DNA of 64,000 bases from a virus (Duplodnaviria; Heunggongvirae; Uroviricota; Caudoviricetes), in IMG/VR virus record IMGVR_UViG_2541047715_000004. The stretch is one strand, 5' to 3'. A program made the position numbers and the translations under genes. The notes under the pieces are model-generated. The model saw only the letters and a list, made by a program, of their open reading frames with translations. It had not been told where the DNA came from and ran no database searches. How positions within the stretch are numbered: position 1 is the first letter of the stretch; each line of letters opens with the position of its first letter. Shown here in pieces: positions 23,224 to 52,999 of the stretch.

Positions 23224-23282
23224 AGCCTGCTTCTGTATATATAAATAACTACATATTAATTATTAATATACGGAAGCAGGCT
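23224..23282. repeat. palindromic element CCTGCTTCTGTATATA...TATACGGAAGCAGG (copy 1)
   Basis: 16-bp arms around an AT-rich loop; near-identical arms recur at 52944-52999. Confidence 0.6.
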
Positions 23283-23388
23283 GTTTTATATCAGAGACTC
23301 CCAGACCTGAACACCACTACAGAATCCACTAGAACCCCTTCCCAGACGCTTTAAAATCGATTTTATGAACCACTTTAAGGAAACCAAC

Positions 23389-23619
23389 ATGTCATACCCG
23401 ACTAATGTCGTTGCGCTCGTAGAGAGCGATTTTCTGGCCCAGGCTCGTGAAATGATGAAAGATCGTGAGCAGGCTTTCAACTTGTACGAATGGGCAATTA
23501 AGTGCTTGCATCTTGGGGAGCATCGCGAACTTGTTGAACAGCTTTTAGGTGAGTTGATCAACGAGGTGTTTGCCTTGAATGTTCAACTACATGGTCGAAA
23601 AAATAATCAATCGAAATGA
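23389..23619 (+). CDS. hypothetical protein
   Basis: Start taken at MSYPTN Met with AAGGAAA RBS. Confidence 0.4.
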   Translation: MSYPTNVVALVESDFLAQAREMMKDREQAFNLYEWAIKCLHLGEHRELVEQLLGELINEVFALNVQLHGRKNNQSK

Positions 23620-24205
23620 TAGATAAGTACAAACTATTCATAAAGTGAATTGTAAGTGCTAAGATCTGATAGTTTCCAGTCGTAGACTGGAGGCTCGACC
23701 TGATGGGTGGGGGTAAGCGTCACTGGCGTCAGGTTTAAAAAAGCTCACTACCAGCGTAGAACCGGCACCGTTTAGGGGTTGGGGAAGGGGGAACCAAAGT
23801 GAGCAGAGACAAGGGTCACTTTATGATTGTCGAGTCTGGGGTGTTTCGAGAGGTTGAATCCAGTACTCCCCTTCATAAAGTGTGGGAAGATCTCGGTTCT
23901 GGGGTGCTGTCATCCATAACTTCCCAAGCCTAAGCTGGCAGTAGACTTAGGTCATAACTTTTCAGGTTATGAAACGACCAGGTTGGTGAGGAAATTTTGT
24001 ACTCACCTCCCTGGGAGAGTATTACCTGAAAAGACAACCTCTCACTTCGTTCGAGGTGAACTTCACTCACTTCGTTCGTTCAGTTCAGGTTTATAAAAAC
24101 CTGTTCTGGGAAGTAATTTGTTTATTTTAATAATTATTAACACGCACGCGTGTGCGCACGCGCGAGGAAAAAAAAATCGGCGCGGCGCTTGATTCAGGAG
24201 TTTAT

Positions 24206-24796
24206 ATGACGACGAAGACACCAGCCCGATCGCAAGCAAAAACTCGCAAAAATGACAAAAACAAAAATTCTCCCCGCACCAATTCCACAACGCCTGTCGT
24301 AGAGTTCAATCCCCAGCTTAAAACCGTGAAAATCTTCAGTGATGGCTCTTGCCTTAAAAATCCGGGTGGCCCGGGCGGTTACGGTATAGTTCTCCAGTAT
24401 GGTGGTGAGGAACGCGAGTTCTCAGATGGTTTTCATAGCACCACCAATAACCGCATGGAGATGATGGGGGCACTTATCGGGCTGGAGCGTTTGAAATATC
24501 CATGCAACGTTATTTTGTACTCTGATAGCCAGTATCTGAAAAACGGCATGACACAGTGGATGAAATGGTGGAAACGCAATGGATGGATGACTTCTGACAA
24601 AAAACCGGTAAAGAATGTTGATCTGTGGAAGCGTCTGGATGAGGCCGCAAGTCGACATAATGTTCGCTGGAAGTGGGTTAAAGGTCACGCCGGGCATCGT
24701 GAAAATGAAATATGTGATCGACTCGCGAAGATCGCAGCTTTTTCAGCAGCAGATATGCCTCACAAGAAAGATATTGGTTTTGTTTATAACAAGTAG
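24206..24796 (+). CDS. rnhA: ribonuclease HI with N-terminal basic extension
   Basis: Core [21 protein letters not shown]...NNRMEMM...SDSQYL...[19 protein letters not shown] parallels E. coli RnhA; start taken at ATG 24206 with AGGAG RBS. Confidence 0.85.
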
Positions 24797-24944
24797 TAAG
24801 TAAGTGTTTACCTATCATTTTAAATCATGTATCTTATCAGCGTCAGGATGACAATGTGTCGGTAAGACACAGTTCCAGGATGGAACGAGAAAGGCGGCTG
24901 GCGATCGCCAGCCGCAACTCTTTCTGACACTGGATGGAGTCCAC

Positions 24945-25439
24945 ATGGCACGTCAAACCTATTTCACTTCTGCAACTAAACGTCCTCGTTCTTTACGTCA
25001 AATTTTGGCCGAATTGTTTAGCGGTCGTGTTATGTCACGTCTTGATGAACTAGAGACTACCGTTCGGTTGCTGAATGAACGTTTAGATAATCAAGCGTCA
25101 GTTGTTGCGAACGTGGGGGCGATTGTTGCCTCTGGTTCTTCACGCGAAGCGAAAAGTACACGGCCTTTAGTGAAGGAGAAAAACAACAAGGACAGTTCGA
25201 ATGGAAAATTTTCAAAGAAAGAGGCTGAAACCAATGGCCTACGTTCTCATTATAGTTTCACTGGCGACGGTAGCCGTTCCAGCCGGCCAGAGCCTTTTGA
25301 TGCCGGGTTCATCCATCACCACACCTCCGTCGACGACAATTACCACCACTCCAGTAGAGCGTCCTGTCACTCTGGATGGGATGACGGTGGATGCGATACC
25401 TCAAGTTCATCCAGTTACTCAGGATCATGTTGTGACTAA
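24945..25439 (+). CDS. hypothetical protein (3' extent uncertain)
   Basis: 164-aa ORF with low-complexity C-terminal half, overlapped out of frame by ORF 25201-25452 that encodes a hydrophobic segment. Confidence 0.3.
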   Translation: MARQTYFTSATKRPRSLRQILAELFSGRVMSRLDELETTVRLLNERLDNQASVVANVGAIVASGSSREAKSTRPLVKEKNNKDSSNGKFSKKEAETNGLRSHYSFTGDGSRSSRPEPFDAGFIHHHTSVDDNYHHSSRASCHSGWDDGGCDTSSSSSYSGSCCD

Positions 25440-25448
25440 GGTGGTTGT

Positions 25449-25637
25449 ATGAACTGGCTTTCAAATCACTTTGGGAAAATTTGGCTGGCAATTCTGGCTC
25501 TCATGGCCGCCGGTTGGGTATCCAACATTATAAAACTCGTTTGCTCAGGTGATCTCCAGTTTCAGGCTGGCATGACCTTGGCTCGTGTAGTTGGGATTTT
25601 TATTTTTCCAGTCGGTTCGGTACTTGGTTATTTCTGA
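25449..25637 (+). CDS. small membrane protein
   Basis: 62 aa, two hydrophobic helices. Confidence 0.4.
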   Translation: MNWLSNHFGKIWLAILALMAAGWVSNIIKLVCSGDLQFQAGMTLARVVGIFIFPVGSVLGYF

Positions 25638-25730
25638 CGGTTGTTAGTGCATATGCATTGACCGTCTTTGCGTAAGCAATTTATGTAACCAGAAAACAAT
25701 TTGTTTTGACAAATAGCAAAAGGAAAACAC

Positions 25731-26156
25731 ATGTTAGGTTTCTTCAAAAAGAAAACTCGTAAAGCTGTTATCGAAGTCAAAAAAATGGAGAACCGTGATG
25801 CGGTTGAAGCCACCGTGTGGGGCGGGTACATGATCTCCTATGCCAACGGTACATGCGATGCAAAAGAAATTTCCATTCTTGAGAAAACAATTGCAGCTCT
25901 GCCTGCATTTTCTCCTTTTGCTGGTGAGATTGCCCAGATGAGCGCCAATATCCGCGCTCAATACGAAGCCTCACCGCGCCGTGCTAATGCCCAGGCTTTA
26001 CGTGAGCTGGCGGATGTGGCCGGGACTGATGATGCAGTAGATGTACTGTGTCTGTGCCTTGATATTGCCGACCAGGACGGCATTGATGAACCAGAAGAGC
26101 AGGCGCTGAAAAAGATCGCCCAGGCGCTTCAGTTGTCACTGGATGCTTATCTCTAA
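25731..26156 (+). CDS. hypothetical protein
   Basis: 141-aa ORF with GAAAACAATTTGTTTT motif and conserved RBS upstream. Confidence 0.5.
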   Translation: MLGFFKKKTRKAVIEVKKMENRDAVEATVWGGYMISYANGTCDAKEISILEKTIAALPAFSPFAGEIAQMSANIRAQYEASPRRANAQALRELADVAGTDDAVDVLCLCLDIADQDGIDEPEEQALKKIAQALQLSLDAYL

Positions 26157-26315
26157 TGCTTGAGAGATTCCGGCTTGTGACCGTCATTGCTCTTCTGGTG
26201 ATAGCGGTGTTGGTGGATTTTACGGGAAAGATGATGTCTGTCATTTCTGATGGCGTCCTCATTGGTCTGGCGATCTACTTCGCTTATCCGCTAGTCCGTA
26301 AAGCAACGTGTTAAT
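26157..26315 (+). CDS. small membrane protein (below 60-aa ORF cutoff)
   Basis: 52 codons MLERFRLVTVIALLVIAVLV..., start overlaps upstream stop, followed by terminator. Confidence 0.3.
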
Positions 26316-26316
26316 G

Positions 26317-26346
26317 ACAAGGGCCAAATGGCCCTTGTGTTTCGTT
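26317..26346 (+). terminator. rho-independent terminator
   Basis: Hairpin acaagggcc-aaat-ggcccttgt followed by T-rich run. Confidence 0.55.
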
Positions 26347-26453
26347 GACCGAAATAGAGAGTTTGCACCTTTACGTTTAGCTTGCTCCCCTTTTATGCCA
26401 CATCACAATAAAGCCAATAAGAAAACAACTTGTTTAAGCATTAGGAAAAACAC

Positions 26454-27023
26454 ATGTGCAAGAAATGCAAAGCGATAGCTGATGAACAAAACGCCTTATT
26501 CGAAGAAATGGATGCTAATGAACTGGTCAAAATGTTAGCCATTCTTCGAGGAATAGAAGACGTTTCCATATTTGAGAGAGTGGTTACAGCACTTAATTTT
26601 GAGTCCACCTTTGAAGAGCCAACTCAGGTTGTAGCTTTAGCACATCATTTCGGTGTTCATTATCTTGCTGAAAAAGAGCGCGCTGATAAGTTGCAGGCGA
26701 CTTTGGATATGGTGAGCGAGACTCAACGAACTGATGACACTAACAAGAGTGAGGCGATTATTGCCAGCAAAGATCGTGAAATTGCTGGGCTTAAATCCTC
26801 TCTAACGATGTTGATGTCTGCGTTCAATCTTATGTCTTCTCAGGCGGGTTATAAAATGCCATCACTAAACAGCGATGATCCGATGGCCGTTCGTCAGCTT
26901 TTGGGAGCAATGGCCGACCAACTCGACGACACAAAGAGTCGCCTTGAAGACATGATGCGTGAGTTAAGCCATCGACATAACCTCGCAACACAACCACACA
27001 AAGTCTTTCAAAGCTCTAATTGA
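26454..27023 (+). CDS. hypothetical protein
   Basis: 189-aa ORF, motif and RBS upstream. Confidence 0.5.
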   Translation: MCKKCKAIADEQNALFEEMDANELVKMLAILRGIEDVSIFERVVTALNFESTFEEPTQVVALAHHFGVHYLAEKERADKLQATLDMVSETQRTDDTNKSEAIIASKDREIAGLKSSLTMLMSAFNLMSSQAGYKMPSLNSDDPMAVRQLLGAMADQLDDTKSRLEDMMRELSHRHNLATQPHKVFQSSN

Positions 27024-27027
27024 TCTG

Positions 27028-27058
27028 ATATGGCCGCATGATCGGCCATATTGTGTTG
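27028..27058 (+). terminator. rho-independent terminator
   Basis: Hairpin atatggccg-catga-tcggccatat followed by T-rich run. Confidence 0.5.
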
Positions 27059-27077
27059 ATAAAAACAAGGGTGAAAA

Positions 27078-27359: not shown

Positions 27360-27361
27360 TT

Positions 27362-28614: not shown

Positions 28615-31600
28615 CTATATCTGCCCACCTACTCCTTTGAACTTTTCAATAAACGTGACGATTTTCTGGAAAACGGTCTGTTTTTTCGTTTTATATTGCG
28701 GGTTTAACGGACTAAGTTTTGGTAATGTCTCGTTTAATTCTGTGCCATTTTCGGTGGCGTATTCGCGTTTTAAAGACGTGCGAATATAGCGTTTCGCCGC
28801 CTCTTCATTGAGATTTTCTTCTTTTATCAATGCTTCTGCTTCACGTTGCTGTTCGCGTTGAGCAAACGTAAAGAATGCCTCAATGATACTGGCTTTGTCT
28901 GGTAAATCATCCAGGTTCGTTTGCTGAATAAAATCGACCACCAGGCCCTCTTTCGCCCGGTTCCCCAGGCTTGAACGAATTAAGCGTTTGACCTCTTCGA
29001 TCATTTCGCCCTTGCCTTTATTTTGTCTGTTGTGTTCGAAAATCAGTCCAAGGATATAATCCAGGTTTATTTCCTGAGACTTCAGCAAATCGACCTCAAA
29101 AACTACGTCATCCCAGTCAGTGGTTGATTTCTCTTTTTTCTCAGCTTCTTTCTCACGGCGCTGCCAGTCGCGAATATCGTTATAGGCAGAACGATAATCC
29201 TGAATCTTGCGTTCAGCAGGGAGACGAATTGTTTGCAATTCAGCGAACTTTTCATCATCCACATAATGTTCTGCTTTGAATTTTTCTACCGCAACAGGAT
29301 CGCTAAGATCGATTTGTTGCAGGGCTTTCAGCGTGGCAAATTCATCATAGTTTTGCAGGATGTTCTCGGCACGCAGGTATTCACCAAACAGTTTTACGAA
29401 GTCTTTCTTCTCTTTTTCACTTTCAATACTGGCAGGGTCAGGGAACCGTTGTTCCAGTTCTGAAACTACTGCCATAAAGCCGCGTTTAGCTTCACCAGTG
29501 GCAGCATCTGTAAAGCCTTCCATATACTCAGCATAACTCTTTTCTAACACCACATTTTTAGTATTTTTATCACCAAACAGCGTTATGGCATCAATGGTTG
29601 AGCGTTCCAGATCCCGAAAAGTGACGATGTTACCGAAGGTTTTAGTAGCGTCATAAATGCGGTTGGTACGGGAGAATGCCTGCATCAGGCCGTGAAAACG
29701 CAAGTTTTTATCGACGAATAGCGTGTTCAATGTTGGAGCGTCGAAGCCGGTTAAAAACATCCCAACGACAATTAACAGATCGATATCCTGATTTTTAACC
29801 CGTTGGGCTAAATCACGATAGTAGTTCTGAAAACCGTTACTGTCGGTGCTGAAGTTAGTTTTAAAATAGCTGTTATACTCACGAATTGCAGCGTCAAGAA
29901 ACTCTTTAGCACTGCTGTCCATTGCGCTGGTATCAAAAGTTTCATCGGAAATTTCACCAATGGCATTTTGTTCTTCATTGGCGGCAAAGGAGAAGATTGT
30001 TGCAACACGCAGCGGTTTATAGGTAGCCGATTTATTAGCTGCTTCCTCTTGTAACCGTTTAAACGTCGCGTAATAGGCTTTCGCGGCATCCACGCTACTC
30101 ACTGCCAGCATGGCATTAAAGCCTTTGGAACCTGGGAAAGTACGGTGGGTCTTCTGGCGGAAGTTATTCAGAATATATTGCGTAATTTCCTGTATACGCA
30201 TGGGATGAAGAAATGCCTGCTGATTTTCAGCCGCACTCAGTTTTTTCTCGTCGGTTTCTGTCTCTAAAGATTTAAACTGTGGCCGCACATCGTTGTAGTC
30301 CACCTTGAATTTGAGCACTTTTTCATCACGAATCGCATCGGTAATTACATACGAATGCAATTCACGACCAAATACGCTGGCGGTCGTTTCTGAGCCTAAG
30401 GCGTTTTCCGGGAAAATAGGTGTGCCGGTAAAACCAAACTGATAATAGCGTTTGAATTTCTTCTTCAGGTTTTTCTGCGCTTCTCCAAACTGGCTGCGGT
30501 GACATTCATCAAATATAAACACCACTTGCTGATTGTATACAGGCAGGTCGCTTTCTGCTTTCATCAGGTTATTAAGTTTCTGAATAGTGGTGACGATAAT
30601 TTTGTTATCGTCCTTATCCAGATTGCGTTTAAGACCTGCGGTATTTTCCGAGCCGTTGACGCTGTCTGGCGAAAAACGCTTATATTCATTCATGGTCTGG
30701 TAATCGAGGTCTTTCCTGTCGACCACGAAGAAGACTTTATCAATAAAGTCCAGCTCTGTTGCCAGACGCGCGGCTTTAAAGCTGGTGAGGGTTTTACCTG
30801 AACCGGTAGTGTGCCAGATATACCCACCGCTTTCCGGTTTTGACCAGTTCTTCGCTGTAAAGGAACTCTTAATTTTCCACAGAATGCGCTCAGTGGCGGC
30901 AATCTGGTACGGTCGCATCACCAGTAGCGTTTGGCTAACATCGAATACGCTGTAGTTCACTAAGACATTAAGCAGGGTATGTTTCTGGAAAAAGGTGGCG
31001 GTAAAGTCTTTGAGGTCTTTAATCAGCGTGTTGTCTGATTTCGCCCAATTCATGGTGAAGTCAAAACTGTTTTTATCGCGCTTTGTCGTGTTGGCAAAGT
31101 AACGGGTATCGGTGCCGTTGGAAATGACAAACAGTTGCAGATACTTAAACAGAGAATTTTCGCTGTTAAAACTCTCTTTGCTGTAACGATGTATCTGGTT
31201 AAAGGCCTCACGAATCGCCACGCCGCGCTTTTTCAGTTCGATTTGTACCAGCGGTAAGCCATTAACCAGGATCGTGACGTCATAACGGTTAGCATGAGAA
31301 CCCGTCTGTTCAAACTGCTGGATAATCTGCACCTTGTTGCGCATGAGATTCTTTTTATCTATCAAATAGATGTTCTCAAGACGCTCGTCATCAAAAATAA
31401 AGTCGCAAATATAGTCGATATGGATTTTACGGGTCTTATCCAGGATGCCATCGCTCGGGTTATCCAGATACTGCTCCGTGAAACGCCGCCATTCGCTGTC
31501 ATTAAACACCACACCATTGAGGTTCTGAAGCTGTTCCCGAACGTTGGCCAGCATCGCCGACTGAGATTTTACGGAAATAAATTCATAGCCCTGATTCCGC

Positions 31601-31731
31601 AGATCCTGAATCAGTTCACGTTCCAGGTCCGATTCGCTCTGGTAGCTGTCGCCTGTTTGCTCGGCTTTGATGTACTTATCAAGAACGATAAAGTTATTGG
31701 ATTCAGCAATGGTGTGTGTCTGATGAGTCAT
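28615..31731 (-). CDS. hsdR: type I restriction enzyme R subunit (type IC, EcoR124-like)
   Basis: 1038 aa; N-terminus [22 protein letters not shown] matches my recollection of EcoR124I HsdR; helicase motifs [16 protein letters not shown]. Confidence 0.9.
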
Positions 31732-31852
31732 AGCGCATCCTTTGTGCCGTCTGGCAAGGGCCGGAAGGGCTTTAAGGGCGACTTCCGGCGTGTAAAAAAT
31801 AGTCTCTATATAGACCGGATGTTAAGGTGATCCGGTCGGTAGCAATGGTCAA

Positions 31853-33100
31853 TTAGTTACTGATAGTTTCAGGTTTGGGAAAACTGAACAGTAAATCACG
31901 ATAGTACTCGTATTGTTTCTGGCGCAACTCGATTTCACGCGGAAGACCTTCGGTGATGGAATTGGTCAAAGCATCAAATTTATCCAGTAATTTCACTATT
32001 TTTTGTTGTTCAACTAGCGATCTTTCAGGAGAATCAGGAAATGGTACTGGTATCATAAGTTTTCTTAAGTTATCATTATAAAGTCTTTTAATAGTTCCAC
32101 CTTCAGATATTCCCCATTTTGCTATTTTATAGAAATAGAATAAATATTTATTTAAAACTATTTTTTCATTATTTTCAATCCAGACAATATTGCTATCCTG
32201 GAAATATGATTCCCTACCATCAAATATAACAGTCCTGCCGATGGTCCCACTGGCAGAAATCAATACTTCGCCAACTTTAGGATAACTATATTTTTCTTTA
32301 AATTCATTAAATAGTTTTCTAGATATATAGGAATCGGGTTCCTTACCAAATGTCCCAATTTTATAAAATGGAATCTCTCCCTCAGAAGATGTTTGTGATT
32401 TTAGGATTCGTTTACACATACGAACTTCACCAATTTCCCCCAAAGCTTTCCACTCAACCTCACCCTCTTTAAAACTCAACAACTGGTCGCGATAGTAGTT
32501 GTATTGTTTTTTACGCATGCTAAGCTCAGCGGTAAGCTCAGCGGTAAGTGCAGTAAATTTATCCAGAATCCTGACGATTTCAGACTGGATAGCCAGCGAC
32601 TTTTCCGGGTTGTTGGGGCAAGGGATGGGGATAAGTAATTTACCTATATCTTTAGCATACAAATGATAAACAGTAGAACCTTTAACCATTTGCAATATCT
32701 TTTTTTTGTTATTTATTATGAAATTACTTAGATATCTACCATCAACACCAGAGCATCTAATAATCAAAATATCGCCGCCTAAAATAACGCCACTTTCTTG
32801 AATGCAACTAGCTGTAGCCAAACCTCTTGGTGTAACGTCTGACGTTGGCATTAGAACATCATTTTTTTCAGATAGAATTGACTCATTGATTGCTTGGTTT
32901 GTTTTTGAGCATACTTTGTCAATTATGGGACCATAATGAGTGAAAAGCTCACCGTAATGAATACAATATCTATTGCCATCTGGAGTTATTTTTTCTTTAG
33001 GTAAAGACTTCCCTTTTAAAAAAGTTGCTAATTTATTTAATGCTACCCACTCAACCTCAGCCCCATCCAGCAGTTTTTCCAGATAACTCAGCTCGCTCAT
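31853..33100 (-). CDS. hsdS: type I restriction-modification specificity subunit (type IC)
   Basis: Two target-recognition domains separated by conserved central region containing TAELTAEL; conserved C-terminal [22 protein letters not shown]. Confidence 0.9.
32522..32545 (-). repeat. 2 x 12-bp tandem repeat encoding TAEL-TAEL in hsdS central conserved region
   Basis: aagctcagcggt repeated twice on + strand (ACCGCTGAGCTT on coding strand). Confidence 0.85.
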
Positions 33101-34659
33101 GCCTGTACCTCGCTACCTTCAATCTCAGCAACAATCGCATCAATATCTTTACGCAACTGGTCGATTTTGCTGACCGTGGTTTTCAGCTCAGCATTCAGCT
33201 CAGCGATATCGATAATTTCGCGAGTATCTTTCGCTTCCACATAGCTGCTCACCGACAGGTTATAGTCATTCGCGACAACAGTCTCAAACGCAACAGATTT
33301 CGCCAGATGAGCAACATCTTCCTTGCTGGCAAATACCTGCATAATCTGTTCGATATGAGCATCGGTCAGAATGTTGTTGTTAGTCTCTTTTTTGAACAGT
33401 TCGCTGGCATCAATAAACTGAACTTTGGTATCCGTTTTATGTTTAGACAGCACCAGAATATTGACGGCAATAGTGGTGCCAAAGAACAGATTCGGTGCCA
33501 GTGAAATCACGGTTTCGACATAGTTATTGTCGACCAGATACTGACGGATTTTCTGCTCCGCGCCGCCACGGTAAAAAATGCCTGGGAAGCAGACAATCGC
33601 AGCGCGACCTTTGGCCGAAAGATAGTTCAGCGCATGTAATACAAACGCAAAGTCAGCTTTGGATTTGGGGGCCAGAACGCCAGCCGGGGCAAAACGTTCA
33701 TCGTTAATCAGCGTCGGGTCATCGCTGCCAATCCATTTCACCGAATACGGCGGGTTAGAAACGATGGCATCAAACGGTTTTTCATCTCTGAAGTGCGGCT
33801 CAGTCAGTGTATTACCCAGCTTGATATCAAACTTGTCGTAGTTGATGTTGTGCAAAAACATGTTCATACGCGCCAGGTTATAGGTCGTATGGTTGATTTC
33901 CTGACCAAAAAAACCTTCTTCGATGATATGGTCATCAAACTGTTTTTTCGCCTGCAACAACAGCGAACCGGAGCCTGCTGCCGGGTCGTAGATTTTGTTA
34001 ACGTGGGTCTGCCCGTGCATAGCCAGTTGTGCAATCAGCTTAGAGACGTGCTGCGGTGTAAAGAACTCGCCGCCGGACTTACCGGCATTCGCCGCATAGT
34101 TAGAAATCAGGAACTCATAGGCGTCACCGAACAGGTCAATCTGATGTTCATGGAAGTCACCAAGTTTTAGCCCTTCAACCCCTTTCAGAACCGCAGCCAA
34201 GCGGGCATTTTTATCTTTAACGGTGTTACCCAGGCGGTTACTGGTGGTATCGAAATCAGCAAACAAACCTTTGATGTCAGCTTCTGAAGGATAACCGTAA
34301 GCAGAACTTTCGATAGCAACGAAGATGCTGTTTAAATCTGCATTCAGTCTGTCATTAGTATTTGCTTTCGCAGCTACGTTGCAGAAAAGCTGACTGGGGT
34401 AGATGAAGTAGCCTTTAGTTTTGATGGCATCGTCTTTAATGTCATCAGTAATTACGCTGTCATCCAGTTTCGCATAACAGATACTGTCATCACCGGCTTC
34501 AATATAACTGGAAAAATTTTCGCTGATAAAACGGTAAAAAAGCGCGCCCAAAACGTACTGCTTAAAATCCCATCCATCGACTGAACCCCTGACATCGTTA
34601 GCAATTTGCCAGATCTGGCGATGAAGCTCTGCACGTTGTTGAATACTTGTCATTTTCAT
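33097..34659 (-). CDS. hsdM: type I restriction-modification methyltransferase subunit
   Basis: N6-adenine MTase motifs including NPPYS; stop overlaps hsdS start (ATGA). Confidence 0.9.
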
Positions 34660-35751: not shown

Positions 35752-35762
35752 GAGAACTGATT

Positions 35763-35788
35763 AGGCGGTGCAATGCACCGCCTTTTAT
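35763..35788. terminator. bidirectional terminator hairpin
   Basis: Hairpin aggcggtgc-aat-gcaccgcct with T-run, between convergent umuD-like and mrp genes. Confidence 0.55.
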
Positions 35789-37045: not shown

Positions 37046-39079
37046 ATGACCCAAGTCGCGAAGAAAATTCTGGTGACGTGCGCGCTGCCGTACGCTAACG
37101 GCTCAATCCACCTCGGCCATATGCTGGAGCACATCCAGGCTGATGTCTGGGTTCGTTACCAGCGAATGCGCGGCCACGAGGTTAATTTCATCTGTGCCGA
37201 CGATGCCCACGGTACGCCGATCATGCTGAAAGCACAGCAGCTTGGTATCACACCGGAGCAGATGATTGGCGAAATGAGTCAGGAACACCAGACTGATTTC
37301 GCAGGCTTTAACATCAGCTATGACAACTATCACTCGACGCACAGCGAAGAGAACCGCCAGCTGTCTGAGCTTATCTATACTCGCCTGAAAGAGAACGGTT
37401 TTATTAAAAACCGCACTATCTCTCAGTTGTACGACCCGGAAAAAGGCATGTTCCTGCCGGATCGTTTTGTGAAAGGCACCTGCCCGAAATGTAAAGCGCC
37501 AGATCAATACGGCGATAACTGTGAAGTCTGCGGCGCAACATATAGCCCGACTGAATTGATCGAGCCGAAATCGGTGGTTTCTGGCGCTACCCCGGTAATG
37601 CGTGATTCCGAACACTTCTTCTTTGATCTGCCTTCTTTCAGCGAAATGTTGCAGGCATGGACCCGCAGCGGCGCGTTGCAGGAGCAGGTGGCGAACAAAA
37701 TGCAGGAATGGTTTGAATCCGGCCTGCAACAGTGGGATATCTCCCGAGATGCGCCTTACTTCGGTTTTGAAATTCCGAACGCGCCGGGCAAATATTTCTA
37801 CGTCTGGCTGGACGCGCCGATTGGCTACATGGGTTCCTTCAAGAATCTGTGCGACAAACGCGGCGACACTACCAGCTTCGACGAATACTGGAAGAAAGAC
37901 TCCACCGCCGAGCTGTACCACTTCATCGGTAAAGATATCGTTTACTTCCACAGCCTGTTCTGGCCTGCCATGCTGGAAGGCAGCAACTTCCGCAAGCCGA
38001 CCAACCTGTTTGTTCACGGCTATGTGACGGTGAACGGCGCGAAGATGTCCAAGTCTCGCGGCACCTTTATTAAAGCCAGCACCTGGCTGAATCATTTTGA
38101 CGCCGACAGCCTGCGTTACTACTACACTGCGAAACTCTCTTCGCGCATTGATGATATCGATCTCAACCTGGAAGATTTTGTTCAGCGCGTGAATGCCGAT
38201 ATCGTGAACAAAGTGGTTAACCTGGCCTCCCGTAATGCAGGTTTTATCAACAAACGTTTTGACGGCGTGCTGGCAAGCGAACTGGCTGACCCGCAACTGT
38301 ACAAAACCTTCACTGATGCCGCTGAAGTGATTGGTGAAGCGTGGGAAAGCCGCGAATTTGGCAAAGCTATCCGTGAAATCATGTCACTGGCTGACCTGGC
38401 TAACCGCTATGTTGATGAACAGGCTCCGTGGGTGGTGGCGAAGCAGGAAGGCCGCGATGCCGACCTGCAGGCGATTTGCTCTATGGGCATTAACCTGTTC
38501 CGCGTGCTGATGACGTACCTGAAACCGGTACTGCCGAAACTGACTGAACGTGCAGAAGCATTCCTGAATACAGAACTGACCTGGGATGGTATCCAGCAAC
38601 CGCTGCTGGGCCATAAAGTGAATCCGTTCAAGGCACTGTATAACCGTATCGATATGAAACAGGTGGAAGCACTGGTGGAAGCATCCAAAGAAGAAGTGAA
38701 AGCCACAGCTGCACAGGTAACTGGCCCACTGGCTGACGACCCGATTCAGGAAACCATCACCTTTGACGACTTCGCCAAAGTTGACCTGCGTGTGGCGCTG
38801 ATTGAAAACGCGGAGTTTGTCGAAGGTTCTGACAAACTGCTGCGTCTGACACTGGATCTCGGTGGTGAAAAGCGTAATGTCTTCTCAGGCATCCGTTCTG
38901 CTTATCCAGACCCACAGGCACTGATTGGTCGTCACACCATTATGGTGGCTAACCTGGCTCCGCGTAAAATGCGCTTCGGTATCTCCGAAGGCATGGTGAT
39001 GGCTGCTGGCCCCGGCGGGAAAGATATCTTCCTGTTAAGCCCGGATGCTGGTGCTAAACCAGGCCACCAGGTTAAGTAA
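37046..39079 (+). CDS. metG: methionyl-tRNA synthetase
   Basis: 677 aa, near-identical in pattern to E. coli MetG (HIGH motif [13 protein letters not shown], zinc knuckles CPKC...CEVC); true start ATG 37046 inside the longer listed ORF. Confidence 0.95.
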
Positions 39080-39240
39080 TTAAACAACCTCTGTTCGCAA
39101 TGCCCGGCAACACGCTGGGCATTTTCATATAGACACAACCCCTTCTGACTTTAACAAACCCTAAAACAATTTGTTTTCTACCTTTTGTTGATTGAGATAA
39201 TAAGCCACATAAGAAAACAAATTGTTTCGGAGTTGTTGAA

Positions 39241-39540
39241 ATGTTGAACATTACCCAAGCCTACCAGGTGGCATTGATCAGTTCATCTCATACATCAGAG
39301 GAAGATGCTCGCCGATTCATGATCGCAAGCAATGAGCTGGATTGGGTTTCACAAATTGATGGCGGTTGTATTGTCCACGCCGGGTTACAGGATGATGTCT
39401 GGAAAGATGACTTGCGTCGATATGGTATATCCGAAGGCGCGATTGCTAACATTCAGAAAGTACTTGATGTAGGCTTTGACTCTGTACATTTTGATTGTGG
39501 TGCACCGGTCGTTGAAGGGCTAGAGTGCTGGCAATGGTAA
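39241..39540 (+). CDS. hypothetical protein
   Basis: 99-aa ORF preceded by two GAAAACAA(n)TTGTTT motifs. Confidence 0.45.
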   Translation: MLNITQAYQVALISSSHTSEEDARRFMIASNELDWVSQIDGGCIVHAGLQDDVWKDDLRRYGISEGAIANIQKVLDVGFDSVHFDCGAPVVEGLECWQW

Positions 39541-40484: not shown

Positions 40485-40699
40485 CGGTTGTAACTTATTG
40501 ATAATGGCGGTCACAATTTGATTCTTTTCTATAAGAATCCGTTGATCGCCACTACTCCCCTACCATGCCCGCAATCACATCCTTAAATATCAATAAGTTA
40601 TAGTTGTTTATACAATCAAGAAAACAACTGAATAACAGATCAACGAAACATCAACGCTTTCACCCGATTTGGTCTAAAAAATTGACGTTTTCACACATC

Positions 40700-41340
40700 A
40701 CTGCTTATACCCGTAATTCTACACAGCAGACAGCGCCACAGCGTCCAATTTTCACCACAGACGACCCAACACACTACCAACAAAAACACATGCTCAAAAT
40801 CGTTCCCGTTGCGTTACATAACCATATAAACAACTTATTTTCAGGCATAACAAAACAACTAAATAACACATATGCCATTCCCAAAACAACCAACCTCGTT
40901 ATGGCAGGCTACCGAAAAGACCCACCTCTTCTTCCCAGGCTACCGGACAACCAACCTAACTTTCACAGGCAATCCGAAAACATTCATACGCGCGATACCC
41001 ACGACACGCCATTACCCAAACAGCGAAGAAACACCAGAATCACTGAAACCCCAACGAAGCCTGTAACCGCAAGGTTTCTCTCAATCCCAAAAGACACGAA
41101 GCATAACAATCACGGGAAACGCCATTACCCAATACACGAATAACTACAAAAGCCTTTCACACACTCCAGACAAACAACTCAAACACAATAACGAAAGGAA
41201 TCGCCCACCTGCCATTACTCCATACACGGAGAAGAACAATCACCAAAACGACGAGAACACCCCATAGAAGAACCACCGCAAAACTAACGAAACCACATAC
41301 ACCGACAGAGAAAACAACACACCCAATTCACCAACAGAAA
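40700..41340 (+). other. C+A-rich, G- and T-depleted tract (approximate bounds)
   Basis: Long runs such as caccacagacgacccaacacactaccaacaaaaacaca; ORF 40604-41143 translates to low-complexity T/P/N/K/H/Q-rich sequence. Confidence 0.6.
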
Positions 41341-43858: not shown

Positions 43859-44002
43859 ATGGGCGATTTCAAGAAACGCCTGAAGGAAAGAGCCGAGATG
43901 GTCAGAAAGCAAAACGCCTCTTCTGTCATCAGATACGCAAGGCAGTTTAGTCGCAACAACAAATCAGTTGAGGAAAAGATCCTTAGCGTAATCGTGCGAT
44001 AA
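43859..44002 (+). CDS. small basic ORF (below 60-aa cutoff, uncertain)
   Basis: 47 codons MGDFKKRLKERAEMVRKQ..., followed by hairpin aaggccatcagcattggtggcctt. Confidence 0.2.
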   Translation: MGDFKKRLKERAEMVRKQNASSVIRYARQFSRNNKSVEEKILSVIVR

Positions 44003-44206
44003 TTATTAAGGCCATCAGCATTGGTGGCCTTAAATGACCATCTTGTTTCCCGCAGGCTAAAAACACCAACCTCTTACCTCCAGGCAACCGACAAACCCAC
44101 CTGTTCCCGTCCGGCTACCGCAACTTTCCACTTTGACGCCTTATTCGTACAACGATAATTAACGCCAACAAGAAAACAATTTGTTATTTACGATAAGGAA
44201 TTAATC

Positions 44207-45300: not shown

Positions 45301-45305
45301 CGATT

Positions 45306-48102: not shown

Positions 48103-48104
48103 AA

Positions 48105-49664
48105 CTAATCTCGTTTCAGAACTCCAAAATCGAATGCGCCATCAATAGGCAATACACCTTCTGCAAAGCCAGGTGTGGTGTCGATGATGTGTTTTCGCTC
48201 ATAAGAGTGAGACAACAGGTATTTGTTGCTAATGTCAATGAAATCAGTGATAAAACACACGTTTGCCTGATTTTTTTTGGCTCGTAAGCCACGACCGACA
48301 CGCTGTCTCATTTCAACTTCTGCTTTCCCACCACCAGCAAGAATGACCGCACCAACGCTTGGCACATCAACACCGACATCCAGAATAGTCGAGCCTATTA
48401 AAACATCTATTTCTCCAGACGCTAAACTGTTCAGCTTTGCTTGCCTTGTCGCCTGGTTAGATTCCCCATAGATGAAGTCAACTCTAAGGCCGGACTCTTT
48501 CATCATTTCCATCAGGATTTGCCCGTGGCGTTTAAGACGAACCAGAGTCATACAATTGAGAGAATGTTGCTTATAGAGCAATGCTTCGCGAACAATGGCC
48601 TCGTTACGTCCCAAATTATACACGATCCCCAACTGATAAGCCTTTTGGTAGGCGGTGCTCATACCAACTCTAAAATTGAGGTGTTTGTTGGCAAGTTCGG
48701 CCTTGATTCTGGCCTCGTCTGGCTTGTAGGCAACTTTATGATAAAGGAAGTACGGCTTTGCCAGAATGCCTCGATCAATCAGGTACTTTTCTGTGACTTT
48801 AATTTCAATTCGCCCGGCCACCGCCATCAGGCGCATGTTGGCTTCCGTCGAATCCTTCATGAACGGCGTGGCTGTAAGCGCCAGACGATAGTCTGCGTTC
48901 ACACATAATCTGGCGATGTCATAGAAATTTGAGCCTGAAGACTCATGCGCCTCTTCCAGAATAAGAAGAGAGACACTTGAAAGGAAGCGTTTCACCAACT
49001 CCCGACGTTTGAGGTGGTAGCTCTTTTTATCTGGTGTTGCATCGCGTGGTGGTTCTTCGAGGAAACTTGCAAGAGTTTGAACTGTAGCGACGTTGATATG
49101 TCGTGATACCTGGAACTCACCCGAGCCAATGACTCCAACCTTTTGGTCTTTTAACCACGGTTCGCCATTTTCGGCGCGGTAGTCGATGGATCTCTGGAAG
49201 TTTTCGGCCATTTGAAACATCAGAACAGAGCGGGTTGTTAAAAATAATGTCATTCGACCGATACGTGCAGCTGCTTTGCAGGCAACATTAGATTTCCCGC
49301 CACCAGTAGCGATCTGCGCAATCATCATTCCCTCTCGAACCAGTGTTTCCACAGTCTGATCCTGATACGCATAATCAGGATTGTATGGGAATGGGTTAAC
49401 CGCCGGATTTGGTTTTCCAAGCGCCGGGGCTTTGTCTTTGCGGATATGAACACATTTGATGCCCGCCTTGTTCAAGTTCGCCGCTACAGGCTTGGCAAAG
49501 CCAGCAGGGAACGAGTTTTTACTCCAGTTGAACATCGTGCTTGTGCCCTTCCAGTCGCCAGTCTCGACTTCGTAGCTCAACATTTGCTGCACCAGTTGCT
49601 TTACCTTGTCATCTGCGCCAGAAATAAGCGCATTTACTGCGTTAGATACAATCCGAACAGTCAT
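48105..49664 (-). CDS. superfamily 2 DEAD/DEAH-type helicase
   Basis: Motif I ATGGGKS, motif II LILEEAH, motif III LTATP, motif VI QRVGRGLR. Confidence 0.7.
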   Translation of the reverse strand: MTVRIVSNAVNALISGADDKVKQLVQQMLSYEVETGDWKGTSTMFNWSKNSFPAGFAKPVAANLNKAGIKCVHIRKDKAPALGKPNPAVNPFPYNPDYAYQDQTVETLVREGMMIAQIATGGGKSNVACKAAARIGRMTLFLTTRSVLMFQMAENFQRSIDYRAENGEPWLKDQKVGVIGSGEFQVSRHINVATVQTLASFLEEPPRDATPDKKSYHLKRRELVKRFLSSVSLLILEEAHESSGSNFYDIARLCVNADYRLALTATPFMKDSTEANMRLMAVAGRIEIKVTEKYLIDRGILAKPYFLYHKVAYKPDEARIKAELANKHLNFRVGMSTAYQKAYQLGIVYNLGRNEAIVREALLYKQHSLNCMTLVRLKRHGQILMEMMKESGLRVDFIYGESNQATRQAKLNSLASGEIDVLIGSTILDVGVDVPSVGAVILAGGGKAEVEMRQRVGRGLRAKKNQANVCFITDFIDISNKYLLSHSYERKHIIDTTPGFAEGVLPIDGAFDFGVLKRD

Positions 49665-49746
49665 AAACCTCTTTCCTTAGTGCCTTTTGTATGTTATTTG
49701 GCTATTATAATAAGTAAGTGATTACTTAGTGGATTGTAGCAATAAA

Positions 49747-50427
49747 ATGGATGTAAAAATCACGATTTTGCAGGTTGATGTTGCCAACCTTCGCCCGAAT
49801 ACCTGGAACACCAATTCGGTTGGTGCGCAGAATTTTGAAAAACTGAAAGGTTCTATCGAAAAATTGGGCTTTTTTAAGCCAATTTTGGCTCGTGAACTTG
49901 AAGATGGATTTTTTGAAATCCTAGGCGGCGAACATCGCTGGCGTGCTGCTATTGAGCAAGGAATTTCAACGGTTCCGGTGCTTTCTGTGGGCAAAATTAG
50001 CGATGTCGTAGCTAAACAGATGTCACTGGTGGACAACGAGCGATACGGTGAAGACGACCAAATCGCATTGCAACGCTTCATTGAAGAAATTCAGTCAGAA
50101 CTTGACTATCAACTGTCTGAAATCGCCCCGTATGACGACGAAATCTCGATGGTTTTAGCAAAAGAGGCGGCAATCGACCTTGAAGCACTGGAGGCGTTGT
50201 CTCGTGGTAGTGATGAGCCTGTCGATACCGACAAACGAGAGAAAACCGAACGTGTGGGGGCGGAACATCAGACCATGCGCTTCAAAGTAACTTTCGATGC
50301 GTCAGATCGTGTTGCAGAAACCATAAAAAACATCATCAAAGAGCAGGCTATTAACACCGGTAATGAAATGGAGAACGCTGGTGAGGCTCTGGTGTGGCTG
50401 GTCGACTACTACAAGGAGCGTATGTAA
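49747..50427 (+). CDS. ParB/Srx-fold nuclease-domain protein
   Basis: ILGGEHRWRAA matches ParB box II type motif; start taken at MDVKITIL. Confidence 0.55.
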   Translation: MDVKITILQVDVANLRPNTWNTNSVGAQNFEKLKGSIEKLGFFKPILARELEDGFFEILGGEHRWRAAIEQGISTVPVLSVGKISDVVAKQMSLVDNERYGEDDQIALQRFIEEIQSELDYQLSEIAPYDDEISMVLAKEAAIDLEALEALSRGSDEPVDTDKREKTERVGAEHQTMRFKVTFDASDRVAETIKNIIKEQAINTGNEMENAGEALVWLVDYYKERM

Positions 50428-51095
50428 TGACCAAAAAGTTTGAAATCGTATATCGCGACCCGGCAGATCTTATTCCCTATGAGATGAATGCCAAAAAGCA
50501 TGATGAACAGCAGATCCGAGATCTGGCCGCAGCCATTAAAAAGCGCGGATTTGACCAGCCAATTACGGTCGATAAGAACGACGTAATTATTACTGGCCAC
50601 GGCCGCCGTGAGGCTGCAATTTTTGCTGGACTTGAGCGCGTGCCGGTTATTGTTCGCGATGATCTGAGTGATGACGAGGTACGTGCAAAGCGCCTTGAAG
50701 ATAACCGACTTGCCAGCATTGATTACGATGCAATTAAGCTACAGAAAGAGCTTGAGTCGCTTGTTCTGGACGATATCGAGGTTTTCGGCTTCGAAGAGCG
50801 TGAGTTGAATGTTCTCGTTGGCAGTATGACAGAAGAAATGGACACCGACTCGCTAGTTATCGATCTTGGCGAAGAAACTAAACGACAGAAGGATGAACAC
50901 ACCGAGATCAGTCGTGAAGTTGCAGCGGAAGAAGTACGTGTTGTCGACGTATTGGGCTTTAAAACGCTCCCTGCTGGCTCTGCCATTGTTGTTGGTGATT
51001 TGCTTGCCCATATGGAAGAAATGACGGGAGAAAGCGGGGTAGACGCATTTGTGGCATATGCGGAGAAGATCTCTTCCGGGGAGATGGCTGCATGA
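50427..51095 (+). CDS. second ParB/Srx-fold domain protein
   Basis: IITGHGRREAA motif; start taken at MTKKFEIVY, overlapping upstream stop. Confidence 0.55.
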   Translation: MTKKFEIVYRDPADLIPYEMNAKKHDEQQIRDLAAAIKKRGFDQPITVDKNDVIITGHGRREAAIFAGLERVPVIVRDDLSDDEVRAKRLEDNRLASIDYDAIKLQKELESLVLDDIEVFGFEERELNVLVGSMTEEMDTDSLVIDLGEETKRQKDEHTEISREVAAEEVRVVDVLGFKTLPAGSAIVVGDLLAHMEEMTGESGVDAFVAYAEKISSGEMAA

Positions 51096-51757
51096 GCAAA
51101 TACATCATCAACGTATCGTTTCAGACACGCGTAAATAAAACCACGCGCACGTTGGAAATCGCTGAGTCGTTCGGGCTTGGCCTGGACGAAAAAGAGTGGA
51201 CGCTTTACGACAATCTGGAGCTGGAAGTGAAGCAGGGCGATGTGGTGTACATCACCGGCCAATCCGGTTCCGGCAAATCCGTTGTGCTGCGCGAGTTGCA
51301 ACGACAGATGAAGGATGAAGGGCTGTCTGTAGCCTCCATCGATGATTTTACCTTCGATAATGAGGTTAACGTCATCGATCAGTTGGGCAAAACGACCAGT
51401 GATGCGCTTGGGTTGTTATCTATGGCTGGTCTGAACGATGCATATCTGTTTGTTCGCAAGCCTTCTGAAATGTCAGACGGCCAGAAATATCGTCTCAAGA
51501 TTGCCAAACTGATTGAGTCAGGCGCTAAAGTATGGGCTGCTGACGAGTTCGGCGCTGTTCTCGACCGTGTAACCGCTCAGGTTGTGGCGTCTAACCTCCA
51601 GCGTGCCGCTCGAAAGGTTGGTGCGACGGTAATGGTGGCGACGACTCACGAAGACCTGAAGAACGCGCTGCGCCCTGATATGCAGATCACCAAGCACTAC
51701 AAAGAACGCGTGAAGGTGGAATATCACAATGGTAGTCATGATGAGGTCCATTCATGA
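51092..51757 (+). CDS. small ABC-type P-loop ATPase
   Basis: Walker A GQSGSGKS, signature-like SDGQKYRL, Walker B VWAADEF, H-loop-like ATTHED. Confidence 0.55.
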   Translation: MSKYIINVSFQTRVNKTTRTLEIAESFGLGLDEKEWTLYDNLELEVKQGDVVYITGQSGSGKSVVLRELQRQMKDEGLSVASIDDFTFDNEVNVIDQLGKTTSDALGLLSMAGLNDAYLFVRKPSEMSDGQKYRLKIAKLIESGAKVWAADEFGAVLDRVTAQVVASNLQRAARKVGATVMVATTHEDLKNALRPDMQITKHYKERVKVEYHNGSHDEVHS

Positions 51758-52644
51758 CGGACATCATCATTAAACGCTACCGCCCTGAAGAGTTTCCGCG
51801 TCATCTGGACTTTCTGGAGCGAATGACTGTTACAAAGGGAACTGTAGAGGACTGGCACGCTCTTAAATCGCTTCACTACAAAACAGACGGCAAACCTTTC
51901 GCGCCAACATACTATCGCTGCGAACTGGATGACCGTCTGGTGGGCGTCGTGGTTATGGCTTACCCGAAACTTCTGCTGGCACCTCGCCATCGCATGTTTC
52001 CTAAGTTGAAACCAACTACCAATACCACCGTGGCTAACCAGTACTGGGGTCGGTACGTGAATAACAACTTTGCGGTGATCAGCCGCTCAGTTGTGGATAC
52101 TCAGTACCGTGGCGTAGGCGTCTCTTATCGAATGATTAACCTGGTTAGCAGGATGCATGACCGGCCAATCATTGAGATCCAGTCATCGATGAGCAAATAC
52201 AATCCCTTCGCCATGAAAGCAGGGTTTAAGTTCATCCGCCCTGAGCGACCGAAGAGCTATGAAAGTGCACTGCGTGTATTCCAGCGCCATTTCCGTTCCG
52301 ACCCGGGTGATAACGAGGCGATCGTCAAAGAGTTGTTCGCAATGAGCGAGTCTCGTCGTCGCCGTGCACTGCGTGATCTGGTGGCGGACTACCACAAGAA
52401 CAGTTCCCTGGCAAAAGCTGGGCGGAATCGTGGCACGACGATTCAGGACATTGCCGACAGTCTGGTGGACGAGGCCAGCATTGTGAAGCTGCTCAAGGAC
52501 ATTCACAACCTGAGCTTTACGTCTCCGTTGTATGGTGTGTACCGAAACCCTGACTTTGGCCGTCGACTGCCTGACACGCTGCCACTGCTGGCATTCGACA
52601 AACAACCTTTGGATAAACCGTTAGAAATTGCTTTACCGGCATAA
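51754..52644 (+). CDS. hypothetical protein, possibly GNAT-fold
   Basis: YRGVGVSYRM resembles acetyl-CoA binding motif R/QxxGxG/A; weak. Confidence 0.3.
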   Translation: MTDIIIKRYRPEEFPRHLDFLERMTVTKGTVEDWHALKSLHYKTDGKPFAPTYYRCELDDRLVGVVVMAYPKLLLAPRHRMFPKLKPTTNTTVANQYWGRYVNNNFAVISRSVVDTQYRGVGVSYRMINLVSRMHDRPIIEIQSSMSKYNPFAMKAGFKFIRPERPKSYESALRVFQRHFRSDPGDNEAIVKELFAMSESRRRRALRDLVADYHKNSSLAKAGRNRGTTIQDIADSLVDEASIVKLLKDIHNLSFTSPLYGVYRNPDFGRRLPDTLPLLAFDKQPLDKPLEIALPA

Positions 52645-52653
52645 GGATTTGCC

Positions 52654-52920
52654 ATGACGTTAACCGATAAACAAAAGGACATCATCAAAACGCTCAATCT
52701 CGGTTATGAGCGAGGTCATCTACTTGACCTGGACGAATTGCTTGAAGTTTTGCCGTACAAGACAACCAAGCAAAGTATCCAGTTCTCAATTCGCGCTCTG
52801 ATAAAAAAGGGGCTGGTGGAGAAAGGGCATACGCGCCAACGCAGTGACAATCGCTATCACCGCCGGACTCTTGGGTTAACCACTTTAGGTCGAGCCAAAG
52901 CGAAGTTACTGGTGATGTAA
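52654..52920 (+). CDS. small putative DNA-binding protein
   Basis: 88 aa, basic C-terminus; helix-turn-helix-like segment. Confidence 0.35.
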   Translation: MTLTDKQKDIIKTLNLGYERGHLLDLDELLEVLPYKTTKQSIQFSIRALIKKGLVEKGHTRQRSDNRYHRRTLGLTTLGRAKAKLLVM

Positions 52921-52943
52921 TCGGTCTGGGAGCTTATTTAAAG

Positions 52944-52999
52944 ACCTGCTTCTGTATATAAATAATAAGTAACTTATTAAATATATACGGAAGCAGGCT
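52944..52999. repeat. palindromic element CCTGCTTCTGTATATA...TATACGGAAGCAGG (copy 2)
   Basis: Near-identical arms to 23224-23282. Confidence 0.6.

Follow-up and report, generated by a model that had tools for sequence, protein, structure and literature searches.

Three composite palindromes at fixed module junctions of SSU5-like phage-plasmids, possibly acting as operon-boundary hairpins

We analysed a stretch of 64,000 nucleotides of viral DNA (IMG/VR record IMGVR_UViG_2541047715_000004; the whole stretch is called the window below) which contains two long palindromic elements, here termed B and C. The window is part of an SSU5-like phage-plasmid. Its identity is 97-99% with Escherichia phage Cyrano (plasmid pLF82 of E. 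coli LF82) and further SSU5-like phage-plasmids of E. coli, and 76-80% with Salmonella phage SSU5 and Klebsiella phage-plasmids. An earlier note on this DNA had described two palindromes about 29.7 kb apart, one after a Dam-like gene and the other before the gene of the small terminase subunit. Direct reading confirms both palindromes, B at 23224-23282 and C at 52943-52999, with a start-to-start distance of 29,719 bp, and the gene context is as claimed. B begins 22 nt past the stop codon (23200-23202) of the Dam methylase gene, whose product matches Pfam PF05869. C lies behind an 88-aa gene (52654-52920) and is separated by 115 nt from a gene which is annotated in relatives as small terminase or DNA-binding protein; by the annotation of the relatives the downstream genes are thus terS and terL, and TerL matches the domains Terminase_6N and Terminase_3. 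B and C are two members of a family of three composite palindromes which occupy the major module junctions of the SSU5-like phage-plasmids.

Both elements are read on the plus strand and have 16-nt arms, CCTGCTTC(T/C)GTATATA, in common, which surround an AT-rich centre. The inner palindrome of B is AGCCTGCTTCTGTATATATAAATAACTACATATTAATTATTAATATACGGAAGCAGGCT with the core CCTGC...GCAGG at 23226-23280. Its left arm spans positions 23224-23240, the AT-rich centre 23241-23265 and the right arm 23266-23282, and as an inverted repeat it has 17-nt arms with 94% complementarity. The inner palindrome of C, GACCTGCTTCTGTATATAAATAATAAGTAACTTATTAAATATATACGGAAGCAGGCT, has the same core at 52945-52997 and forms a hairpin with 26-nt arms, a 1-nt gap and 88% complementarity, after which there is no U-tract. 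The two palindromes had been called near-identical. This is correct for the arms, as there is no difference between the left arms and a single base differs between the right arms, but not for the AT-rich centres, which differ (78% ungapped identity over 45 nt). When the window is searched for the arm 16-mer with up to 3 mismatches, four matches are found, two at each site; shuffled controls give 0.32 matches on average and none of 100 shuffles reaches four. With up to 4 mismatches no further arm copy is found in the window.

The palindromes are longer than had been noted, since the inner palindrome is nested in an outer inverted repeat GGTCTGGGAG/CTCCCAGACC. The box GGTCTGGGAG is located 10-13 nt upstream of the inner palindrome and the box CTCCCAGAC(C) 15-30 nt downstream. 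Exact 9-mers GTCTGGGAG occur three times in the 64-kb window, each at most 100 nt away from B or C. On the plus strand B is followed by the U-rich tail GTTTTATAT (23283-23291; in other lineages U4-U6 right after GCAGGC) and then by the outer box CTCCCAGAC (23298-23306), the reverse complement of GTCTGGGAG. The upstream outer box of B is degenerate (GTTCTGGCG, 23206-23214), and a second box-like copy, TTCCCAGAC, is found at 23339-23347. At C the upstream box GGTCTGGGAG (52923-52932, plus strand) starts 3 nt past the stop of the 88-aa gene, and the downstream box is the partial CCAGACC (53012-53018, plus strand), which reads CCCAGACC in other E. coli relatives. In the extended DNA or RNA fold positions 52923-52929 pair with 53012-53018. 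Most C-site lineages keep the upstream box; it is changed or partly lost in loci L126-L128, L131, L132, L141 and L157. A further structure, a GC-rich hairpin TAGAGCGC..GCGCTCTG with a U-rich tail (53074-53105, plus strand), stands 75 nt past C and just 5′ of the start codon of terS (53114). This hairpin does not belong to the repeat and is kept in all C-site relatives.

The third copy, A, lies outside the window. In the Cyrano genome (OV696614) it occupies positions 31159-31211. A ParA-type operon ends in front of it with CYRAN_30, and behind it CYRAN_31 stands ahead of the genes for helicase and primase. When IMG/VR was scanned with a pattern of both arms, 88 exact-arm copies were retrieved from 87 loci, and comparison of the flanks assigned all 88 to A, B or C, each with its cognate flanks and in the same orientation. 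All three copies are present in IMGVR_UViG_2880329822_000001, in IMGVR_UViG_2718218304_000001 and in Cyrano; one 101-kb contig holds the three copies as loci L010, L036 and L078. The presence of the element was also counted in locus sets which were picked independently of the arms. Of 74 usable terS loci 73 have it upstream of the gene, and of 77 Dam loci from IMG/VR 67 have it downstream; a TerS scan of genome contigs gave only 4 loci. Among the plasmids of PLSDB, the B region has matches in 705 and the C region in 792; their hosts are Escherichia, Klebsiella, Enterobacter, Salmonella, Citrobacter, Cronobacter and Kluyvera, and for C only also Yersinia. The plasmid pFra/pMT1 of Y. pestis has retained C only, with A and B lost in regions now carrying insertion sequence elements; a single 16-mer resembling an arm, within coding sequence of pFra (37692-37707), was put down to coincidence. 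In the searchable literature (queries on SSU5 termini, PhageTerm and pHCM2/pMT1 palindromes) we found no published description of these elements.

The junctions are always the same. At A the ParA-type operon ends and the replication genes follow, at B the replication and nucleotide-metabolism block ends with Dam and the accessory region follows, and at C a ParB-like/ATPase operon ends ahead of the terminase and late genes. The genome of about 108 kb is thereby split into three parts, namely C-A (about 31 kb) with late, lysis and maintenance genes, A-B (about 47 kb) with the replication, recombination and nucleotide-metabolism block, and B-C (about 30 kb) with the accessory block and the ParB-like/ATPase operon at its end. 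Every copy is positioned about 20-25 nt after a stop codon and between genes on the plus strand. The earlier note had further suggested that the pair brackets a host-type block together with the accessory genes. This block is a complete type I restriction-modification system on the minus strand (28615-34659; hsdR with 1038 aa, hsdS with 415 aa and hsdM with 520 aa), opposite to nearly all other genes. Cyrano has other accessory genes at the same place and no type I restriction-modification block, thus the system is cargo inserted in the variable B-C segment. As Cyrano nevertheless has the same B and C, the bracketing is incidental and the three copies are fixed throughout the family whatever the cargo. 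The outcome which had been named as speaking against a special role of the pair, more copies with no structural variation between them, is essentially what the family presents.

Recombination between the copies had also been considered, and the comparison of relatives argues strongly against it. None of the 88 IMG/VR copies has a chimeric combination of flanks, 682 of the 705 plasmid records are collinear over a 401-nt query across B, and neither deletion nor inversion between copies was found at the elements. In every relative the identity to the window is alike on both sides of B and of C (e.g., 76% vs 80%; 84% vs 80%); the elements are therefore not breakpoints of module exchange, and this candidate was rejected. 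The rearrangements of pMT1 known from the literature are not located at the elements. Arms of 16 nt around an AT-rich spacer of about 23 nt, which varies in length from 19 to 27 nt, are unlike the cores of lox, dif or res, and the elements have no GTTRRRY/RYYYAAC ends, that is, no attC R and L boxes with a GTT core. Some observations nevertheless speak for exchange. In many E. coli relatives A and C agree at 55 of 55 positions, suggestive of gene conversion among the copies, and a tyrosine recombinase is encoded in the SSU5-like family. Just upstream of A lies a replaceable cassette (Cyrano locus L092, 19833-20659, compared with L011, L075 and L078), which is a DUF2971 gene in Cyrano and, in most E. 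coli relatives, a different gene about 0.9 kb long, and which is missing from a Klebsiella-type contig; A itself and its downstream flank remain constant despite this turnover. In Escherichia albertii plasmid p2014EL-1348-1 (L261) an extra copy is found in a fourth context at about 5969-6057, equivalent to positions 43961/44008 of the window. It has the outer boxes including the upstream GGTCTGGGAG and stands at the left edge of a 2.2-kb insertion with a RelE/ParE-type toxin-antitoxin pair. Thus, the element can travel with cassettes or attract them. Taken together, the identity of A and C, the variable cassette and the E. albertii copy point to occasional gene conversion or cassette turnover and not to a dedicated recombination system.

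All elements have a strong potential to form hairpins. Folded as RNA they reach about -28 to -30 kcal/mol on both strands, at z-scores from -6.2 to -7.7, where B and C stand at -30 kcal/mol with z = -6.7 and -7.7. Folded as DNA B and C give z = -8.2 and -9.3; in no case did a shuffled sequence fold as well. A stable stem–loop, unusually long and AU-rich in its stem, is therewith predicted at the presumed 3′ end of a transcription unit. The RNAalifold consensus of nine B-site lineages recovers the outer helix of 8 bp beside the inner helix. An extended duplex of about 20 bp or more is predicted in silico, with GUCUGGGA/UCCCAGAC paired in the RNAalifold consensus and in extended folds. At some Salmonella-type B sites the pairing runs on through the spacers, with compensated differences between the lineages. 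The tails differ between the copies. B is followed by GUUUUAUAU and A by (UC)UUUUAAA, and in most lineages U4-U6 stands after both. Downstream of B and of A there are C-rich, G-poor stretches with 32 C vs 12 G and 28 C vs 13 G per 100 nt, respectively. The whole window has no match to Rfam at gathering thresholds, and permissive scans around B and C returned only chance-level matches to hairpins of eukaryotic miRNA precursors.

The pairing of the arms is maintained in evolution. In 52 distinct A, B and C sequences standard pairs occupy 92.9% of the cells and both sides have changed at 6 pairs; the covariation score is above that of all 500 shuffles and of all slid controls. Arm position 6 changes from T-A to G-C with G.A and U.C as intermediates, position 8 from C-G to T-A (U-A), and at position 9 C-G, U.G, U-A and C.A are seen. 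Relatives with 61-64% Dam identity have different yet complementary arms (GCCTTGCTCCCATA...TATGGGAGCAAGGC and GCCGTGTTCCCATA...TATCGGAGCACGGC) around the same AT-rich centre; a search with the arms of a divergent lineage (L251) matched only its own B site. The AT-rich centre is kept in all clades with varying sequence and orientation. In copy A of Cyrano it is flipped, as would be expected if the centre is just the top of a hairpin. A T4-type late promoter (TATAAATA) in the centre was considered and dropped, as this motif is frequent but not universal and occurs on either strand. The spacing of the arms shifts by 2-4 bp through slippage in TA repeats and the distance to the right-hand outer box varies between 15 and 30 bp.

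In more distant plasmids the element gives way to ordinary terminators. Relatives with 69-72% Dam identity have lost the left arm of B and show a remnant of the right arm followed by a canonical terminator hairpin and GTTTTT. In Klebsiella oxytoca pCAV1099-111 (TerS 64% identical) T8 follows a degenerate hairpin at C, and A and B have a half-element of about 55 nt in common, behind which canonical terminators are nested in a further helix. Between them, these diverged relatives and pCAV1099-111 have canonical hairpins with T5-T8 at the positions of B, A and C.

Expression data are available from the RNA-seq table of LF82 lysogens, which is resolved to the gene level (supplement, PMC9928086). 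In this table the log2 of FPKM+5 (FPKM, fragments per kilobase per million) is about 10 for CYRAN_28-30 (10.4 for CYRAN_30) vs 2.3-4.2 for CYRAN_31. Expression thus drops about 100-fold across a gap of 194 nt, and element A is the sole predicted structure in this gap. Across B there is a slight rise, from about 4.1 for Dam to about 5.1 for CYRAN_80, and across C and the hairpin following it a 2- to 3-fold fall at low expression levels, and neither of these changes is informative.

From these data we conclude that the elements most likely mark transcript boundaries and not recombination sites. We tentatively suggest, giving it close to an even chance, that they are operon-boundary hairpins which act at the level of the RNA to terminate or insulate, possibly with processing of read-through transcripts similar to that at lambda sib/tI. 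Transcribed from the plus strand, the element would form the 3′ untranslated end of the operon before it. The inner hairpin of 50-60 nt would then halt or destabilise read-through, at A and B by means of the U-rich tail and the C-rich, G-poor stretch, at C jointly with the canonical hairpin and U-tract 75 nt downstream. In this way each module would be insulated from its upstream neighbour. As the 3′ half of the outer repeat lies 15-30 nt past the U-rich tail, GGTCTGGGAG and CTCCCAGACC could pair only when the polymerase has read through, and the resulting longer duplex might be a substrate for an RNase III-type enzyme. In phage lambda the tI terminator is nested inside the sib RNase III site. 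The analogy would be a terminator-like inner hairpin inside an outer pair that can form only on read-through; it is one of architecture alone, and there are three copies here and not one.

Bidirectional terminators had been one of three options offered in the earlier note, next to recombination sites and binding sites. This option comes closest, in view of the position after stop codons, the canonical terminators in relatives and the drop across A, but the qualification 'bidirectional' does not fit. The neighbouring genes are all on one strand, thus bidirectionality would serve no purpose. Nor are the elements standard intrinsic terminators. With these they have in common the hairpin straight after a stop codon between co-directional operons, the U-rich tail at A and B, the canonical counterparts at the same sites in related plasmids and the drop of about 100-fold at A. 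Unlike these they are mostly A-U hairpins of 50-60 nt without a U-tract at C and with a negative classical score, and the arms of the three copies are conserved across genera while ordinary terminators diverge freely. The elements also resemble the ERIC/IRU and REP/BIME families, which are likewise imperfect palindromes, of about 100-130 nt with outer boxes, are transcribed within operons and can act on the fate of the mRNA. However, the elements are confined to one phage-plasmid family and to three orthologous sites and are not dispersed, and neither sequence similarity to ERIC/IRU or REP/BIME nor an Rfam match was found.

Several observations weigh against operon-boundary hairpins. The drop in the RNA-seq data is gene-level, from lysogens only and confined to copy A, and Rho-dependent termination in the C-rich tract would explain it equally well. 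C is without a U-tract in all of 37 distinct sequences. With a d'Aubenton-Carafa-type hairpin/U-tract discriminant, whose values are approximate as current energy parameters were used, all copies score negative, the best A and B copies at about -3 to -8 and C at -26 to -73. B of the E. coli type is borderline with a tail score of 3.6 and a discriminant of about -8; among canonical terminators elsewhere in the window 2 of 7 tested score positive (13051-13073 and 35762-35783). The window has many such ordinary short GC-rich terminators, and termination by itself does not account for the use of a special class at three junctions. Most positions of the arms are invariant; outside E. coli the arms match those of the window to about 93%, compared with 70-85% identity for the flanks (400-800 nt, mostly coding). 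This is more than a structure alone would need and may be a sign of a partner that reads the sequence, or of concerted evolution. Finally, the mismatch intermediates show no preference for G.U on the plus strand, C.A being about as common. The covariation therefore fits an RNA hairpin, a DNA hairpin or cruciform and gene conversion between the arms alike, and a test for strand bias of G.U vs A.C, meant to split selection on RNA from selection on DNA, was uninformative. Simple termination leaves the conservation of arms and boxes, the missing U-tract at C and the restriction of a special class to exactly three junctions unexplained, and these three facts give room to alternative readings.

The first alternative is a DNA-level site, possibly a cruciform, for a phage protein; the leading candidate would be a lytic origin or an entry point for recombination-dependent replication. 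Conserved inverted boxes would flank an easily melted AT-rich centre on which the replisome of the phage and its T4-like recombination proteins would act. The genome encodes a DnaB-like helicase, a primase, Pol III alpha, a ligase and a gp32-like single-strand binding protein, and for recombination UvsY, UvsW, an intein-containing RecA and SbcCD-like and RuvC-like proteins. The conservation of arms and outer boxes as sequence, the AT-rich centre that is kept in all clades with free sequence and orientation, and the strongly favoured hairpin of the single-stranded DNA would suit such a site. In addition, pCAV-type relatives have the same half sequence, similar to the right arm, at each of A, B and C, also in places where they have lost the left arm. 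Judged by its sequence the arrangement is compatible with a replication origin, and it recalls oriS and oriL of herpes simplex virus, which also have conserved inverted boxes around an AT-rich centre, lie between genes and number about three per genome. Around 14 iterons with the core ACCGCTGACAGCATA are found in the window at 5620-6157 and 7267-7373. They flank a Rep3/RepA-type initiator reading frame (6158-7372, minus strand, Pfam Rep3_N), and this region is the plasmid maintenance origin of the phage-plasmid. With the iterons assigned to the plasmid RepA, no lytic origin has been identified, which also favours a DNA-level role. Other features fit it poorly. The elements always abut stop codons in co-directional operons, whereas the genes flanking the herpes simplex origins are divergent. 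Plain terminators substitute for the element in some lineages, which suits transcription better than replication, and the variation in arm spacing and box distance would be poorly tolerated by a rigid symmetric protein complex. Furthermore, A and B are lost in pFra/pMT1, although this may not be an active phage. We regard a DNA-level site as unlikely, albeit worth keeping in mind. The more specific proposal that all three palindromes are lytic origins, or cruciform or break sites starting T4-style replication, possibly doubling as operon boundaries, we rate as a rather small chance. If it were true, the SSU5/pHCM2/pMT1/pKpn phage-plasmids would have a herpesvirus-like set of three palindromic origins.

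The second alternative is a nut- or put-like site of processive antitermination or another protein-bound RNA signal. Box GGTCTGGGAG and hairpin at the head of a module would load a phage factor, and the polymerase would then pass downstream terminators such as the hairpin before terS. The layout of box, 10-13-nt spacer and hairpin, which heads three modules of 30-47 kb, is suggestive in this respect, and conservation across copies and genera would be expected for the site of a trans-acting factor. There are terminators inside the modules, e.g., after the capsid gene, and 75 nt past C, in the late-operon leader, stands the conserved hairpin that resembles a terminator. A terminator at this place suggests antitermination or attenuation as the control of the late genes. 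In Acinetobacter pORAB01-1 (L098, 19880-19925), where TerS is 32% identical, terS is likewise preceded by an equivalent hairpin and T8. On the other hand, no N-, Q- or put-type factor could be identified. The lower stem is conserved and the loop varies and flips, the opposite of boxB-type recognition, and the fall of about 100-fold across A in lysogens indicates a boundary and not read-through. It appears therefore improbable that antitermination is the function of the elements.

A packaging signal (pac or cos), with C recognised or cut by the terminase, is very improbable. The proposal draws on the GenBank records of SSU5 (JQ965645, virion DNA) and Cyrano (OV696614), both of which start inside C (window 52980/52981), and on the proximity of C to terS and terL. 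The Cyrano record, however, is the re-annotated plasmid pLF82, so its start adds no independent evidence, and a palindromic repeat in three copies is a natural break point of assemblies. For us the starts of the records are therefore no evidence of genome ends; the split of the palindrome across the ends of the records is probably an artefact of assembly or orientation. Other phage records begin elsewhere. A terminase would be expected to act on a single site, but the same arms are found at A and B, 31 and 30 kb away from terS. Terminase_6N/Terminase_3 is commoner among headful packagers, whose genome ends are not unique, and this too counts against a packaging signal. For these reasons cos/pac was rejected as the main explanation.

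That the elements serve site-specific or homologous recombination, with deletion, inversion or exchange of the segment between two copies, is largely refuted by the constant flanks, collinearity and even divergence described above, and as three directly oriented sites would moreover be deleterious, we consider this explanation hardly credible despite the identity of A and C, the cassettes next to A and to the E. albertii copy and the tyrosine recombinase.

The window has further repeats and motifs. About ten palindromes with the consensus ATAGGTAAGTnnTTACCTAT(CAT) are located at 2872-2903, 4835-4856, 8339-8372, 13024-13045, 22577-22598, 24797-24818, 49693-49724, 54984-55017, 56497-56528 and 61995-62028. 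At least two of them lie within the spacer of a sigma-70-like promoter (TTGAAA-N17-TATTAT or TATGAT), and the family probably represents promoters or operators of a phage regulator. Acinetobacter pORAB01-1 has a palindrome of an analogous kind, TATTAGTAAGCGCTTACTAATA, which likewise recurs (L098, e.g., 24447-24472 and 28842-28863). The idea that the AT-rich centre of the elements is a palindrome of the ATAGGTAAGTnnTTACCTAT type was dropped, as only the core TAAGT/ACTTA is common to both and the spacing differs. The motif AAGAAAACAAnTTGTTT(AA), a small palindrome AAACAA n TTGTTT, stands just upstream of the Shine-Dalgarno sequence of many plus-strand genes (about 4026, 15449-15494, 25690, 26409, 39150-39241, 40603, 42009, 42493, 43396, 44170 and 53040-53075), with two copies between C and terS; conceivable functions are those of an operator, a promoter element or a signal in translation. 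The strongest excess of C over G on the plus strand of the window is seen at 40690-41250 and 44030-44090, with (C-G)/(C+G) up to 0.58, and 31-nt repeats CCAAAACAACCAACCTCGTTATGGCAGGCTA lie within these stretches at 40881, 40912 and 44057. Downstream of the capsid gene the reading frame 58487-59407 contains an 89-nt direct repeat of 74% identity (59045-59133 and 59306-59394). It is probably a tandem pair of Ig-like domains, since relatives have an Ig domain protein annotated at the same place. The RecA-like protein (779 aa, 502-2841, plus strand) is interrupted by an intein that carries a LAGLIDADG homing-endonuclease domain (Pfam Intein_splicing, LAGLIDADG_3 and RecA). The window has no tRNAs.

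Among the SSU5-like phage-plasmids are pHCM2 of S. Typhi, pMT1/pFra of Y. pestis, pLF82/Cyrano and numerous plasmids of Klebsiella and E. coli, some of them with resistance genes. The transcriptional programme of the family and its lytic replication are essentially uncharted. Three elements at fixed junctions offer handles for mapping the operon boundaries, for testing how the maintenance genes expressed in the lysogen are separated from the lytic genes and for seeking the factor which keeps the arm sequence constant across genera. For annotation they call for caution, as records which start inside C should not be taken to begin at a physical genome end. If the elements are only insulating terminators, the finding would be useful but modest. 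If the arms are read by a phage factor or are active in replication, it would be a more interesting one.

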